A DNA stretch of 64,000 bases, taken from a bacterium (GTDB taxonomy: Bacteria; Actinomycetota; Acidimicrobiia; Acidimicrobiales; Bin134). The stretch covers positions 5,274 to 69,273 of the forward strand of contig JAPOVT010000049.1 of the NCBI GenBank assembly GCA_026708015.1, in the 5' to 3' direction. The translations under genes were made by a program, and so were the position numbers. Shown in pieces: positions 50,929 to 56,127 of the stretch. The notes beneath the pieces are model-generated. The model ran no database searches. It saw nothing but the letters and a program-made list of their open reading frames with translations, and was not told the origin of the DNA. Every line of letters starts with the position of its first letter. Position 1 is the stretch's first letter.

Positions 50929-51594
50929 ATGCGGATCGGGATTCTGGGAGGCACTGGACCGGCAGGGCGCGCCCTGGCCGTACGGTTGGCATCGGTGGGA
51001 TTCGACATTGTGGTGGGATCGCGCTCCGCCGAAAGGGCTGCCGAGATCTGCCAGGGCCTGCTAGCCGAATGGCCCGACCACGAACTCCCTCTGTCGGGCG
51101 CGGCCAATCCCGGCGCTGCGGCCTGCGACGTGGTGGTGGTGGCCACCCCGTGGGACGCCGCCGCGGCCACCGCGGCCACGGTGGCCGACGAATTGGCTGG
51201 CAAGGTGGTCATCAGCATGGCCAACGCCCTGGCCAAGATGGGCCGGGAGTTCCAGCCTCTGGTGCCGTCTCGAGGATCGATCGCCGCCGCGGTGCAGGCT
51301 GCGGTGCCCCAGGCCCTGGTTTCGGCCGCCCTTCAACATGTGCCGGCCCACGATCTGGGTGATCTGAACCATCCGGTGGATTGCGACGTGCTGGTGTGCT
51401 CTGACCATCCCGAGGCCACTGCCACGACCATGGAGATCATGGACATGCTCCCCGGCGTTCGAGCCCTCGACGCCGGTCCGCTGTCGTGCGCCACTCCGGT
51501 GGAGGCCTTCACCGCGGTGTTGCTGCACCTGAACGTCCGCTACAAGACCAGGGTGGCGGTCCGCTTCACCGGCTTGGGCCTCGAAGGCGGCTGA
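50929..51594 (+). CDS. npdG: NADPH-dependent F420 reductase
   Basis: Start MRIGILGGTGPAGRALAVRLA (Rossmann), about 220 aa. The track start at 50818 is too early. Confidence 0.75.
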   Translation: MRIGILGGTGPAGRALAVRLASVGFDIVVGSRSAERAAEICQGLLAEWPDHELPLSGAANPGAAACDVVVVATPWDAAAATAATVADELAGKVVISMANALAKMGREFQPLVPSRGSIAAAVQAAVPQALVSAALQHVPAHDLGDLNHPVDCDVLVCSDHPEATATTMEIMDMLPGVRALDAGPLSCATPVEAFTAVLLHLNVRYKTRVAVRFTGLGLEGG

Positions 51595-51605
51595 GCCCGT
51601 CGGCC

Positions 51606-52769
<1,164 letters not shown>

Positions 52770-52838
52770 ACGGAGTGGGCTGCTGCTCTCGTGGCAAATT
52801 AGGTGGTGCAGGGCATCGGGGCAACATAGGATGACGGG

Positions 52839-52908
52839 TGGAGCTAGAGGGGATCGAACCCTCCCGGTACGGTGTCAAGTCGCGGCCGGCCCGACCACGG
52901 GTAGCCCC
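52839..52908 (-). ncRNA. 70-nt tRNA-Ala-like element (acceptor stem and T arm canonical, core non-canonical)
   Basis: Minus strand: GGGGCTA...GAGGG-TTCGATC-CCCTC-TAGCTCC-A. There is a 7-bp acceptor with G3:T70 and a perfect T arm. The 38-nt interior folds as a GC hairpin, not as D or anticodon arms. Confidence 0.4.
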
Positions 52909-52913
52909 ATCCT

Positions 52914-52973
52914 GGAGGAAGCACTGCTTCCTCCTTGGGCCGCACCGGGCCGCTATGCGGGCCCGGTGCGGCC
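52914..52973. other. two adjacent GC-rich stem-loops (9 bp at 52914-52934; 14 bp at 52938-52973)
   Basis: GGAGGAAGC-act-GCTTCCTCC and GGCCGCACCGGGCC-gctatgcg-GGCCCGGTGCGGCC. They could be a U-tract-less terminator for mshC or part of the minus-strand RNA. Confidence 0.5.
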
Positions 52974-53047
52974 TAGTTCAGCATATACGGAAATACACTG
53001 AAACTAAATGGCAACGAAATTGCATGAACATCTAGGGTGGTCCCGGT

Positions 53048-55036
53048 ATGGCTGACATCAGCGTCCTTCTGCCGGACGGCAGTACGCGCACGATTCCCTC
53101 GGGCGGTACCGCGGGCGACTTGGCCGCCGACATCGGCCCCGGTCTGGCCAAGGCGGCGCTGATCGCCACCGTCGACGACGCCGAGGTGGACTTGAGCGCT
53201 CCGCTGGCCGACGGCCAGCAGGTTTCGATCATCACTGCCGACAGCGACGCCGGCCTGGAAACGCTGCGCCACTCCACCGCCCATGTGCTGGCCCAGGCGG
53301 TGCTGGAGCTTTACCCCGGCTCTACCTACGCGGTGGGCCCACCCATCCAAGACGGCTTTTACTACGACTTCGACCTGCCCGACGGCGCCACCATAAGCGA
53401 CGACGACCTCGAGGCCATCGAAGCCCGGATGCGGGAGATCATCGAAGCCGACCAGCCATTCGAGCGCCACGAAGTGTCGGCCGCCGAAGGGCTACAGCTC
53501 TTTGCCGACCACCCCTATAAGCGCGAGATCATCGAAACGGTGGCCATGTCCCCCGATGCCGACGACTCTGGGCAGCCCGCTGACGAATTGGCCGACGAGG
53601 TGGCCGACGACGGCCAGATCAGCTACTACCGCAACTCGGATTCCTTCATCGACTTGTGCCGCGGCCCCCACGTTCCCTCCACCGGCCGCCTGGGGCACTT
53701 CAAGCTGATGAGCGTGGCCGGGGCCTATTGGCGCCGCGACGCTGGCCGCCCGTCGTTGCAGCGCATCTACGGCACGGCCTGGGCTTCCCGCAAAGACCTG
53801 GCTTCCCACCTGCACCGACTGGCCGAGGCCGAAAAGCGAGACCATCGCCGCCTGGCCCGAGAGCTCGACCTGTTGTCCTGGCCCACCGAGCTAGGACCAG
53901 GGCTGGCGGTGTGGCACCCCAAAGGCGCGGCGGTGCGGCGCATCATCGAGGACTACAGCCGGGGTCGCCACGATGAGGGGGGCTACCAGTCGGTAGTCAC
54001 CCCCCATATAGCCCGCTCTGAGCTGTGGGAGACCAGCGGCCATCTGGACTTCTACCGGGAGTCCATGTACCCGGCCATGGAATTGGACGGCACCTCCTAC
54101 CACCTCAAGCCGATGAACTGTCCCTTCCACGTGCTGATCTACAAGAGCAGCCAGCGCTCTTATCGCGACCTGCCCATTCGACTGTTTGAGCTCGGCACGG
54201 TGTACCGCTACGAGCTGTCGGGGGCGGTCCACGGCCTGATGCGCATCCGGGGATTCACCCAAGACGACAGCCACATCTTCGCCACCCGCGAGCAAGCCCC
54301 CGCCGAGATCGCCTCGTTGGTGGCCTTCGTTTTGTCGGTGCTGCGGGCATTTGGATTCGACGAATTCGAGGCTCGACTGGCCACTCGGCCGCAGGAGAAG
54401 TCGATTGGCGATGACGCCGAATGGGATTTGGCCACCGAGGCCCTCCGGGAAGCGCTGGAGGCCTCCGGGCTGGAGTATGAGCTAGACGAGGGCGGGGGCG
54501 CCTTCTACGGGCCAAAAATCGACATCGACGTGCGCGACGCCATAGGGCGGAGCTGGCAGCTGTCCACCCTCCAGGTGGACTTTCAGCTTCCCGAGCGGTT
54601 CGGCCTCGAATATGTGGGCTCTGATGGCAACCGCCACCGCCCGGTGATGATCCACCGCGCCCTCATGGGAGCGATCGAGCGCTTCTTCGGGGTGCTCATC
54701 GAGCATTGCAGCGGTGCGTTCCCGGCCTGGTTGGCCCCGGTCCAAGCCGCCATCTTGCCGGTGGCCGCTACCCATGCCGACTATGCCACCGATGTGGAAG
54801 CCCGGCTCAGCCAACACGGCTTCCGGGTCGAAGTGGTGGAAGCACAGGAGCCTCTGGGCCGGCGCATCCGGGCAGCCAAGCTCCAGAAACTGCCCTATGT
54901 GCTGGTGGTGGGCGACGACGACGTGGCTCACGGCACGGTAGGGGTAAACGCCCGGGGCAGCGACGGCGATGAGCGGGGCGTGGCGTTGGAAGACTTCGCG
55001 GCCCGATTGGCCGACGACGTGGAAACCCACCGCTGA
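53048..55036 (+). CDS. thrS: threonyl-tRNA synthetase
   Basis: 662 aa. N-terminal TGS domain, editing-domain HSTAHVLAQA, class II core motifs. Confidence 0.95.
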   Translation: MADISVLLPDGSTRTIPSGGTAGDLAADIGPGLAKAALIATVDDAEVDLSAPLADGQQVSIITADSDAGLETLRHSTAHVLAQAVLELYPGSTYAVGPPIQDGFYYDFDLPDGATISDDDLEAIEARMREIIEADQPFERHEVSAAEGLQLFADHPYKREIIETVAMSPDADDSGQPADELADEVADDGQISYYRNSDSFIDLCRGPHVPSTGRLGHFKLMSVAGAYWRRDAGRPSLQRIYGTAWASRKDLASHLHRLAEAEKRDHRRLARELDLLSWPTELGPGLAVWHPKGAAVRRIIEDYSRGRHDEGGYQSVVTPHIARSELWETSGHLDFYRESMYPAMELDGTSYHLKPMNCPFHVLIYKSSQRSYRDLPIRLFELGTVYRYELSGAVHGLMRIRGFTQDDSHIFATREQAPAEIASLVAFVLSVLRAFGFDEFEARLATRPQEKSIGDDAEWDLATEALREALEASGLEYELDEGGGAFYGPKIDIDVRDAIGRSWQLSTLQVDFQLPERFGLEYVGSDGNRHRPVMIHRALMGAIERFFGVLIEHCSGAFPAWLAPVQAAILPVAATHADYATDVEARLSQHGFRVEVVEAQEPLGRRIRAAKLQKLPYVLVVGDDDVAHGTVGVNARGSDGDERGVALEDFAARLADDVETHR

Positions 55037-55632: not shown

Positions 55633-56127
55633 ATGTCTGACGCCGAGATAACCGATGAGCTCCCCCAAGAGCTGAACGTCAGCGAGTACGTCGGCCCATA
55701 CCTGTTTCCCAACAACAGCCGTCGTCGGATTCCGGCCATCATCTATCTGTCGGCTGCATTGGTCTGCACGGTGGTGTGGGCGGTGGCCGCCGACAGCCCG
55801 CTGGTCAATGGGGGATTCCTGGCCGCCGCCATCGCCCTAGCCGTCTTCGCCGTCTACGGCTTTGTCTGCGGCAAAGAGTTGAAGATCGACGAGTCGGATG
55901 CACTGGTCATCGCCATCGGCGCAGTGGGGTTTCCCGTGGGCCATGCATCGGCCCAAATGGGGTGGCGGGGCTGGCTCAGCCGCCCCACTTGGCGCATCCT
56001 GCTCTACTCCAACGAGCCCCAACCTGATCAGCGGGGATTGGTCTTTGTGGACGGCATCACCGGCGAAGTGATCGACCAGCTTGTGCAGCCCAATCCCGAA
56101 GACTGGGCTGACCTAGCAAACGACTGA
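55633..56127 (+). CDS. membrane protein of unknown function
   Basis: 164 aa starting MSDAEITDEL, with two predicted TM helices. The track start at 55348 overlaps the HIT gene. Confidence 0.55.
   Translation: MSDAEITDELPQELNVSEYVGPYLFPNNSRRRIPAIIYLSAALVCTVVWAVAADSPLVNGGFLAAAIALAVFAVYGFVCGKELKIDESDALVIAIGAVGFPVGHASAQMGWRGWLSRPTWRILLYSNEPQPDQRGLVFVDGITGEVIDQLVQPNPEDWADLAND

Follow-up and report, generated by a model that had tools for sequence, protein, structure and literature searches.

The 64,000-nucleotide (nt) window analysed here, taken from contig JAPOVT010000049.1 of an Acidimicrobiia genome, carries a 70-nt tRNA-like element (TLS), read on the minus strand, between a gene for an MshC-like paralogue of cysteinyl-tRNA synthetase (CysRS; 51486-52769, plus strand) and thrS, encoding threonyl-tRNA synthetase (ThrRS; 53048-55036, plus strand). 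All positions are those of the whole window. The MshC-like neighbour is a 427-residue protein with a CysRS catalytic domain, and the 278-nt spacer separating it from thrS is filled by a module of which the TLS is one part. We consider it somewhat probable (roughly 0.55) that the TLS works as a gene and encodes a compact RNA of non-canonical, tRNA(Ala)-like form, which sits in an RNA-only module of ~235 nt, is charged by alanyl-tRNA synthetase (AlaRS) and is controlled by a cis-antisense RNA. Homology between copies of the module spans ~235-250 nt and covers an AT-rich box, two hairpins (H1 and H2), the TLS and a trailer, of which all but the box are laid out as follows.

52839-52908, minus strand: TLS, 70 nt, candidate gene for a compact tRNA-like RNA
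52908-52902, minus strand: TLS acceptor 5' strand, GGGGCTA, pairing with 52846-52840
52901-52890, minus strand: TLS D-like hairpin, CCCG-UGGU-CGGG, with covariation
52889-52864, minus strand: TLS long anticodon-like arm, CCGGCCGCGACUUGACACCGUACCGG, with covariation
52873-52879, minus strand: anticodon-like 7-nt loop CUUGACA at the tip of the long arm
52863-52847, minus strand: TLS T arm, GAGGG-TTCGATC-CCCTC, 5-bp stem and 7-nt loop
52846-52840, minus strand: TLS acceptor 3' strand, TAGCTCC, 7-bp stem with G3:U70
52839, minus strand: TLS discriminator A73, followed by encoded CC
52914-52934, minus strand: hairpin H2, GGAGGAAGC-AGU-GCUUCCUCC, 9 bp, 5 nt upstream of the TLS
52938-52973, strand left open: hairpin H1, 14-bp GC-rich stem with an 8-nt loop, kept in every subfamily
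52775-52838, minus strand: 3' trailer, CC then CAUCCUA..CACCACC..UUUGCCA..AGAGCAGC, conserved in alignments

The trailer, which stops ~8 nt short of the mshC stop codon, is homologous in alignments to that of a paralogue at the thiC/pgi locus.

Standard tools do not recognise the element. In the window, ARAGORN called a tRNA-Val elsewhere and nothing at the TLS, and it made no call in three TLS paralogues; no Rfam family reached its gathering score on the TLS, and the canonical tRNA model RF00005 gave no match even at E ≤ 10. In a relaxed Rfam scan, the top match was mascRNA (RF01684; 21 bits against a gathering score of 42.5), tRNA-Sec scored 20 bits (gathering score 47) and the sole tmRNA match was tmRNA_permuted (E = 5.9). 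The fold-energy z-score of the TLS sequence is -0.40. Since the single sequence is statistically ordinary, the reality of the element rests on comparison, that is, on multiple conserved copies with compensatory changes. Both kinds of check had been proposed in the initial annotation of this DNA, which first flagged the element: the ARAGORN and Rfam searches returned nothing beyond weak resemblances, the best of them to mascRNA, and the comparison with relatives revealed a conserved multi-copy family in which all TLS stems covary.

The predicted fold is a four-way junction in which the helices abut without linkers, there being neither an 8-9 linker nor a variable loop. From the canonical tRNA layout, the TLS has the 7-bp acceptor, the 5-bp T stem and the 7-nt T loop UUCRANY; it lacks linker 8-9, a 4-bp D stem with a loop of 7-11 nt, a 5-bp anticodon stem and a variable loop of 4-5 nt. 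Across 30 sequences of subfamilies A and B, 94% of cells were paired, as opposed to 41-54% in slid controls, with compensatory changes in the acceptor stem, the long arm and the T stem. Among 27 more diverse sequences, whose alignment was fitted to the model so that the counts lean towards structure, 38 of 45 pairs changed on both sides and 92% of cells were paired, versus 33-48% in slid controls. All four pairs of the D-like stem change on both sides in this diverse set (CCCG/CGGG, CCGC/GCGG, CUGG/CCAG, GAGC/GCUC); the hairpin has 3-4 bp and a loop of 3-6 nt that contains GG in every copy. The lower arm always comprises ~9 layers (an outer helix of 4-6 bp, a bulge or small internal loop, and an inner helix of 2-5 bp), which would roughly correspond to the D stem, position 26 and anticodon stem of a normal tRNA. 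Wobble pairs in the TLS favour the minus strand (G.U 49 versus A.C 4). The leader hairpins are maintained as well: H2 shows changes on both sides in three pairs of the A and B set and in eight pairs of the diverse set, and H1 occurs in every subfamily with a different sequence, all 14 of its pairs covarying in the diverse set.

These comparisons bear out much of what had been read from the sequence by eye, namely the tRNA-Ala-like layout at 52908-52839 (an acceptor with G3:U70, A73, a 38-nt interior and a canonical T arm), the two strong hairpins upstream on the same strand (H1 at 52973-52938, 14 bp; H2 at 52934-52914, 9 bp) and the mshC and thrS flanks. The initial annotation had also held that the interior could not be folded into D and anticodon arms, a view overturned by the covariation that backs CCCG-UGGU-CGGG and the long arm at 52889-52864; the GTCGGG/CGAC hairpin that it drew by hand instead has no covariation support. 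The foldable interior, the membership of a family and the promoter- and terminator-like signals on the opposite strand were all absent from it. We rejected three further pairings: GGUG/CACC in the long arm and the minimum free energy hairpin of RNAfold, CGUGGUCG/CGGCCGCG, are left uncompensated in variants, and a leader-trailer pairing, AGGAU/AUCCU, forms in the window and is lost in other copies.

The conserved part of the TLS carries the alanine identity set. None of the 47 distinct copies departs from G1:C72, G2:C71, G3:U70 and A73. Their neighbours vary freely in the same copies: pair 4:69 is G:C in 32, C:G in 10 and A:U in 4, pair 7:66 is A:U in 26 and G:C in 21, and pairs 5:68 and 6:67 also swap. 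An invariant identity set next to freely covarying pairs is the pattern expected under selection for recognition by AlaRS. The features that mark an AlaRS substrate (G3:U70, A73 and G2:C71) lie here in a 7-bp acceptor helix stacked on the T arm. Minihelices carrying G3:U70 are known to be alanylated. Such alanylation is discussed in PMC11392972 and PMC9976931. The elbow features are likewise kept, with a T loop UUCRANY and GG in every D-like loop; in tRNA, G18 and G19 contact psi55 and C56 at the elbow, and the conserved GG and T loop fit such a contact. CC is encoded after A73 in most copies (C74 in 44 of 47) and A76 mostly is not, and position N-1 is U in 32 of 47; most real tRNA genes of the window's genome also lack an encoded CCA. 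Together, these conserved features support putative processing by ribonuclease P (RNase P), CCA completion and charging by AlaRS, for which the window's genome has a single gene; no second AlaRS was found in it.

The loop at the tip of the long arm resembles an anticodon loop, with the form Y-U-NNN-(C/A)-(A/C) and a length of 7-9 nt. In this copy, CUUGACA equals the tRNA-Ser(UGA) loop of the same genome, CUUGAAA, except for C at position 37, and the subfamily C loops CUCCAAA and CUGCAAA are identical to real tRNA-Trp and tRNA-Cys loops. Four paralogues in another family read CUGAAAC, CUGAUAC, CUCAGAC and UUGAUAC. At the thrS locus, variation between orthologues is confined to the central bases (CUUGACA, CUUAGCA, CUUCGCA). 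The loop flanks are constrained and the central triplet is free, a combination that would fit an anticodon or, alternatively, a U-turn contact loop to which its own antisense RNA is always matched. No private antisense site for the loop was found elsewhere in the module. The TTGACA within the loop was discarded as a candidate -35 element because no -10 element follows it.

The signature TANNNT marks actinobacterial -10 elements, and three such hexamers flank the predicted RNAs.

52980-52985, minus strand: P_S, inward -10-like hexamer TATGCT, 6 nt upstream of H1, putative promoter of an H1-H2-TLS transcript
52994-52999, plus strand: P_div, outward -10-like hexamer TACACT, ~48 nt upstream of the thrS ATG (53048), putative thrS promoter
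52827-52832, plus strand: P_AS, -10-like TAGGAT, 6 nt past the TLS 3' end, with a predicted antisense start at 52838-52840

TAnnnT ends 2-6 nt before H1 in 32 of ~53 copies, comprising nearly all members of subfamilies A and B and a few of E; in A and B, TATGCT or TACAAT stands upstream of H1. The box of subfamily A is a palindrome of two outward-facing copies of TAYRCTGA, and P_S mirrors the outward hexamer. On the other side of the TLS, 51 of 55 copies, from all subfamilies, have AnnnTA (TAnnnT on the opposite strand) starting 5-8 nt past A73. Only T, A and T of this motif are fixed, the middle three bases being variable, and the trailers cannot otherwise be aligned between subfamilies. The same test on real tRNA and tmRNA genes gave 1 of 51, with a background of 0.0012 per position. 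This position-specific motif 3' of the TLS places a predicted antisense start opposite TLS positions 73-75. In H1, counted on the TLS strand, A.C exceeds G.U by 21 to 4 with a fixed 14-bp stem and by 55 to 6 with extension allowed, counts that are not phylogenetically independent; the excess indicates that H1 pairs better on the plus strand. A U-rich tail follows H1 on the opposite strand in some subfamilies. H1 would be the 5' hairpin of the sense RNA and is probably the terminator of an antisense RNA. The opposite-strand TAnnnT and the strand bias of H1 together suggest a complementary antisense RNA, and hence two convergent, overlapping transcripts, the tRNA mimic and an antisense RNA of ~140 nt ending at H1. 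A scan for the sigma-70 consensus found nothing; it needs a good -35 element, and the proposed promoters are of the actinobacterial type with a -10 element only.

We also considered whether the module encodes protein. A GTG-initiated open reading frame of 65 codons on the plus strand (52838-53035) begins exactly at the predicted antisense start site; it was rejected as probably non-coding, the corresponding frames of paralogues stopping after 24 and 10 codons. A minus-strand frame running through the TLS was dismissed as coding on the grounds that indels between subfamilies break it.

A thiamine pyrophosphate (TPP) riboswitch (RF00059, 59 bits) lies upstream of thiC in the window's genome (L002:1288-1398, from C65, minus strand). 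In the thiC paralogue of the module, the outward hexamer TATACT stands ~10 nt, and its predicted start ~4 nt, upstream of this riboswitch, so that hexamers of this type are very probably promoters. Transcription of thiC thus appears to start from a promoter within the module, and the outward TACACT at 52994-52999 would be the putative counterpart driving thrS.

Including the flagged one, the window's genome has four copies of the module; the other three are the following.

C65:37332-37404: paralogue, 88% identical
C12:109839-109915: paralogue, 81% identical
C13:86385-86523: divergent fourth copy, found by the covariance model

To follow the family further, we used R1, a covariance model built from the module, on a genus sample of 40 genomes, which are metagenome-assembled genomes (MAGs) of Acidimicrobiia of the Candidatus Poriferisocius type. 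At E ≤ 0.01, R1 matched 36 of the 40, and a single genome had as many as ~11 matches. A match of at least 45 bits was present in about 26 of the 36 (about two thirds of the genus); in the other ten the best score was 22-31 bits, a range reached by real tRNA-Ala genes, and these are not secure carriers. R1 also matched copies, sporadically, in at least four other Acidimicrobiia families, and outside the genus 1 of ~400 evenly sampled genomes of the class had a match at E ≤ 1e-7. The carriers are sponge- or coral-associated Acidimicrobiia MAGs, several of them Candidatus Poriferisocius, a taxon mentioned only in PMC12625765 among the literature searched. The main loci (thrS, thiC/pgi and AMP-ligase/amidohydrolase) are orthologous between species as judged by their flanks, and housekeeping genes flank the module at all loci; no conserved protein gene accompanies it across the compared loci. 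Leader and trailer sequences differ wholly between subfamilies while the upper half of the TLS is constant, and H2 is missing from copies in other families. The family is apparently undescribed, being absent from Rfam 15, ARAGORN and the literature searched, which yielded tmRNA, viral tRNA-like structures, mascRNA, allo-tRNAs and tRNAProX and no architecture matching the TLS.

Some copies are arranged as tandem arrays. At L084 (G008:C1:2896900-2898900), four to five full modules follow one another inside ~1.5 kb; in several of them the T stem contains stretches of 8-15 G, and a stretch of 20 C occurs in L030, homopolymers that may be assembly errors or signs of decaying copies. At L097 (G019:C1:4048300-4048830), the D arm of a family member is near-canonical (GCUC-AAUGGUA-GAGC) and its anticodon arm is aberrant; a hairpin resembling H1 precedes this member, and another tRNA-like gene lies 14 nt downstream. 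The member may represent an intermediate in evolution or belong to a tRNA array. ARAGORN also made three odd calls in the window's genome (C17:62286-62377, C38:41354-41422 and C55:95002-95097), comprising a second tRNA-Ser(GGA) with C37 (loop CUGGACA), a 69-nt tRNA-Thr(UGU) and a 96-nt tRNA-Arg(CCG), the latter two irregular. They may be further non-canonical tRNA-like genes or false calls.

The thrS locus records gain and loss of the module. In most genomes of the genus, mshC and thrS lie ~65 nt apart with no module between them; this usual spacer is conserved (..gataattgg..ggccgaagggttaa..; compared in L109-L126) and is wholly replaced by the module at 52770-53047 of the window. The order of the genes around thrS differs between species through rearrangement. 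In five genomes, the module is found between thrS and a co-directional gene for a 164-residue membrane protein, which lies directly downstream on the module's strand, and one genome (G053) has the same arrangement without the ~214-nt core. In the window's genome, a predicted 164-residue membrane protein (VSDAEITDELPQELNVSEYVGPYLFPNNSRRR...) is encoded at 55633-56124 on the plus strand. Neither terminal inverted repeats nor a target-site duplication was seen at the indel that distinguishes G053 from G001, and we therefore rejected a mobile element with terminal repeats. A pattern scan returned 0 matches in viral contigs, on which ground a phage origin was rejected, and 0 in JGI metagenomes; no integrase lies beside the TLS.

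In the reading to which we assign a probability of about 0.55, a promoter just upstream of H1 would produce an H1-H2-TLS precursor, which RNase P would cut at G1; the 3' end of the TLS would then be trimmed and completed to CCA, and the single AlaRS would charge it with alanine. From the opposite strand, another promoter immediately 3' of the TLS would make a fully complementary antisense RNA of ~140 nt ending at H1, which would pair with the mimic and control its level. The same module would supply an outward promoter for the neighbouring gene, here thrS. Our guess at the product is an alanine-charged tRNA look-alike whose availability is gated by the antisense RNA.

Several points weigh against this proposal. 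The sense promoter is unrecognisable in subfamily D and in copies from other families, and no terminator was found after the TLS. The lean of the 27-sequence counts towards structure and the shared ancestry behind the H1 wobble counts temper two of the comparisons on which it draws. The genome yielded none of the known users of Ala-tRNA other than translation, and the conservation of C74-C75 could reflect the antisense start site, not a CCA end. From transcription and processing to the CCA end, charging and the antisense RNA, each element of the scheme is a prediction from sequence. The family itself is real; charging and the antisense RNA are well-motivated inferences.

A more speculative extension, which we regard as doubtful, makes the unit an RNA-only, two-gene module resembling a toxin-antitoxin system. 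Here, an alanine-charged mimic with a freely changing triplet would be held in check by its antisense RNA, and loss of the latter, for example upon transcription shut-off or phage attack, would release the mimic, leading either to triplet-directed insertion of alanine, a switchable mistranslation, or to jamming of the tRNA-handling machinery.

Among the alternatives, the one that survives best, although unlikely, is that the TLS is a decoding tRNA with an unusual core, charged with alanine and reading the codon that its loop dictates (UCA, Ser, in this copy and others elsewhere), which would make the family natural, deliberately mistranslating tRNA-Ala species. AlaRS ignores the anticodon, an indifference that would permit such a function. 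The loop has the form Y-U33-NNN, measures 7 nt when closed and in some copies is identical to real anticodon loops; its triplet varies between orthologues with the flanks fixed, and the lower arm of ~9 layers in every subfamily may stand in for the D stem, position 26 and anticodon stem. Precedents exist in the mistranslating tRNAProX of Actinobacteria (PMC10404621) and in allo-tRNAs with G3:U70 (PMC5389517, PMC7609411). However, subfamilies A, B, D and E have C at position 37, a purine in canonical tRNAs, the inner stem amounts to merely 2-4 bp with bulges, and many loops have 9 nt. Moreover, the TLS has no linkers at 8-9 or in the variable region, so that its three-dimensional fit to the ribosome is uncertain, and both ARAGORN and the Rfam tRNA model reject it.

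Improbable too, and ranking next, is that the tRNA shape serves as a handle for processing or stability, as in MALAT1/mascRNA and tRNA-linked spacers, with RNase P and 3' nucleases defining the ends of the H1-H2 leader or of the trailer, or that the module is mainly a promoter and terminator cassette; in either case charging would be irrelevant. The top Rfam resemblance is indeed to mascRNA, the leader hairpins and the trailer are conserved alongside the TLS, and a cassette would explain the outward promoter and a hairpin that could terminate a convergent gene. Yet processing enzymes need neither G3:U70 nor A73, which all 47 copies retain even though the remaining acceptor pairs covary freely, and it is the leader and trailer that differ wholly between subfamilies, the upper half of the TLS staying constant.

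We think it quite unlikely that the plus-strand transcript alone is functional, consisting of the -10 element at 52827-52832, a body and H1 as terminator, with the tRNA features of the minus strand as inherited baggage. This strand has the more canonical gene layout: 51 of 55 copies carry a -10 element, the terminal hairpin forms better pairs there and, in some subfamilies, a U-rich tail lies behind it. Read on that strand, however, G3:U70 turns into an A.C mismatch that is just as invariant, and the U.G that recurs in the long arm is likewise mismatched; it is on the minus strand that the conserved T loop, GG loop and A73 are features of a tRNA, and subfamilies A, B and C have an inward promoter.

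The initial annotation had suggested a chargeable tRNA-like RNA, which remains the best fit given the invariant identity set; its variants as a donor of alanine to the cell wall or for another non-ribosomal use found no support, the enzymes not being found. If the TLS donated alanine specifically to a reaction outside the ribosome (bridging of peptidoglycan, alanylation of lipids or Ala-tailing of stalled chains), this would account for an alanine identity kept together with a non-decoding look, and the staphylococcal cell-wall tRNA-Gly species set a precedent, but we judge such a role very improbable: FemAB, aminoacyl-phosphatidylglycerol synthase (LPG_synthase_C) and RqcH (NFACT_N) all gave nothing above cut-off in the 96%-complete genome, and no conserved protein gene stands beside the module.

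Finally, that the element is a decayed tRNA-Ala or ssrA fragment, or an attachment-site duplicate left by an integrating element, as had also been considered in the initial annotation, is hardly credible: although the T arm and acceptor of subfamily B resemble the tmRNA of the same genome and the module is an indel at the rearranged thrS locus, it is full-length, multi-copy and syntenic, is conserved across species and families, retains both acceptor strands, compensatory changes in every stem and its own promoter box, and has no adjoining integrase, no direct repeat of an intact tRNA and no pattern matches in viral contigs, while the intact genes elsewhere in the genome (three for tRNA-Ala, and ssrA) have interiors unrelated to that of the TLS.

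Until now, the main known mimics that accept alanine have been tmRNA, synthetic minihelices and a handful of unusual tRNAs. In the present case, a whole chromosomal gene family keeps the AlaRS identity set and the elbow, with the core rebuilt and the triplet free. If its products are charged, these cells maintain alanyl-RNAs whose role lies outside normal decoding, or which miscode deliberately. As this small, promoter-bearing, RNA-only module comes and goes at housekeeping loci, it also alters the setting in which essential genes, thrS and thiC among them, are expressed. The module offers a testable system for the roles of non-decoding aminoacyl-RNAs in bacteria and for antisense control of tRNA-like molecules.

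Among known systems, tmRNA (SsrA) shares with the TLS an acceptor with G3:U70 and A73, a T arm, the lack of a decoding anticodon and, presumably, charging by AlaRS; in subfamily B, the T arm and acceptor are almost exactly those of the tmRNA of the window's genome. That true tmRNA gene (ssrA), with the tag GNDRELLAA, lies on C46. Unlike tmRNA, the TLS has no mRNA-like part, open reading frame, pseudoknots or long P2 helix; its lower arm is a real one that ends in an anticodon-like loop, its D-like hairpin is closed by a stem, and the Rfam tmRNA models do not match it. With tRNA-Ala and G3:U70 minihelices it has in common the 7/5 acceptor-T branch, G1-G2-G3:U70-A73, the T loop and the elbow GG; it differs from tRNA-Ala in lacking the 8-9 linker, the variable loop and a standard D arm, in its 9-layer arm in place of a 5-bp anticodon stem, and in a loop triplet that, in this copy, is not an alanine anticodon.

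The allo-tRNAs (PMC5389517, PMC7609411) and the tRNAProA/ProX of Streptomyces (PMC10404621) likewise uncouple charging identity from the anticodon, some of them in Actinobacteria and some with G3:U70. However, allo-tRNAs have an 8/4 or 9/3 branch and a long variable arm, in contrast to the 7/5 branch of the TLS without a variable arm, and tRNAProX combines a standard cloverleaf with a dedicated synthetase, whereas the window's genome has a single AlaRS. MascRNA of MALAT1 (RF01684) is eukaryotic and lacks the alanine identity set; like the TLS, it is a small tRNA-like RNA with a reduced lower half, and it is situated within a longer transcript and released by RNase P, as is predicted for the TLS. 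Compared with cis-antisense pairs such as plasmid copy-control RNAs and type I toxin-antitoxin RNAs, the module is without a protein toxin or a replication function, its target would be a tRNA mimic and its antisense RNA is predicted. It would resemble them in its predicted convergent promoters, ~155 bp apart, which would give fully complementary RNAs, and in the YUNR-type U-turn sequence of the TLS loop, which may serve, as in those pairs, for loop-loop contact.

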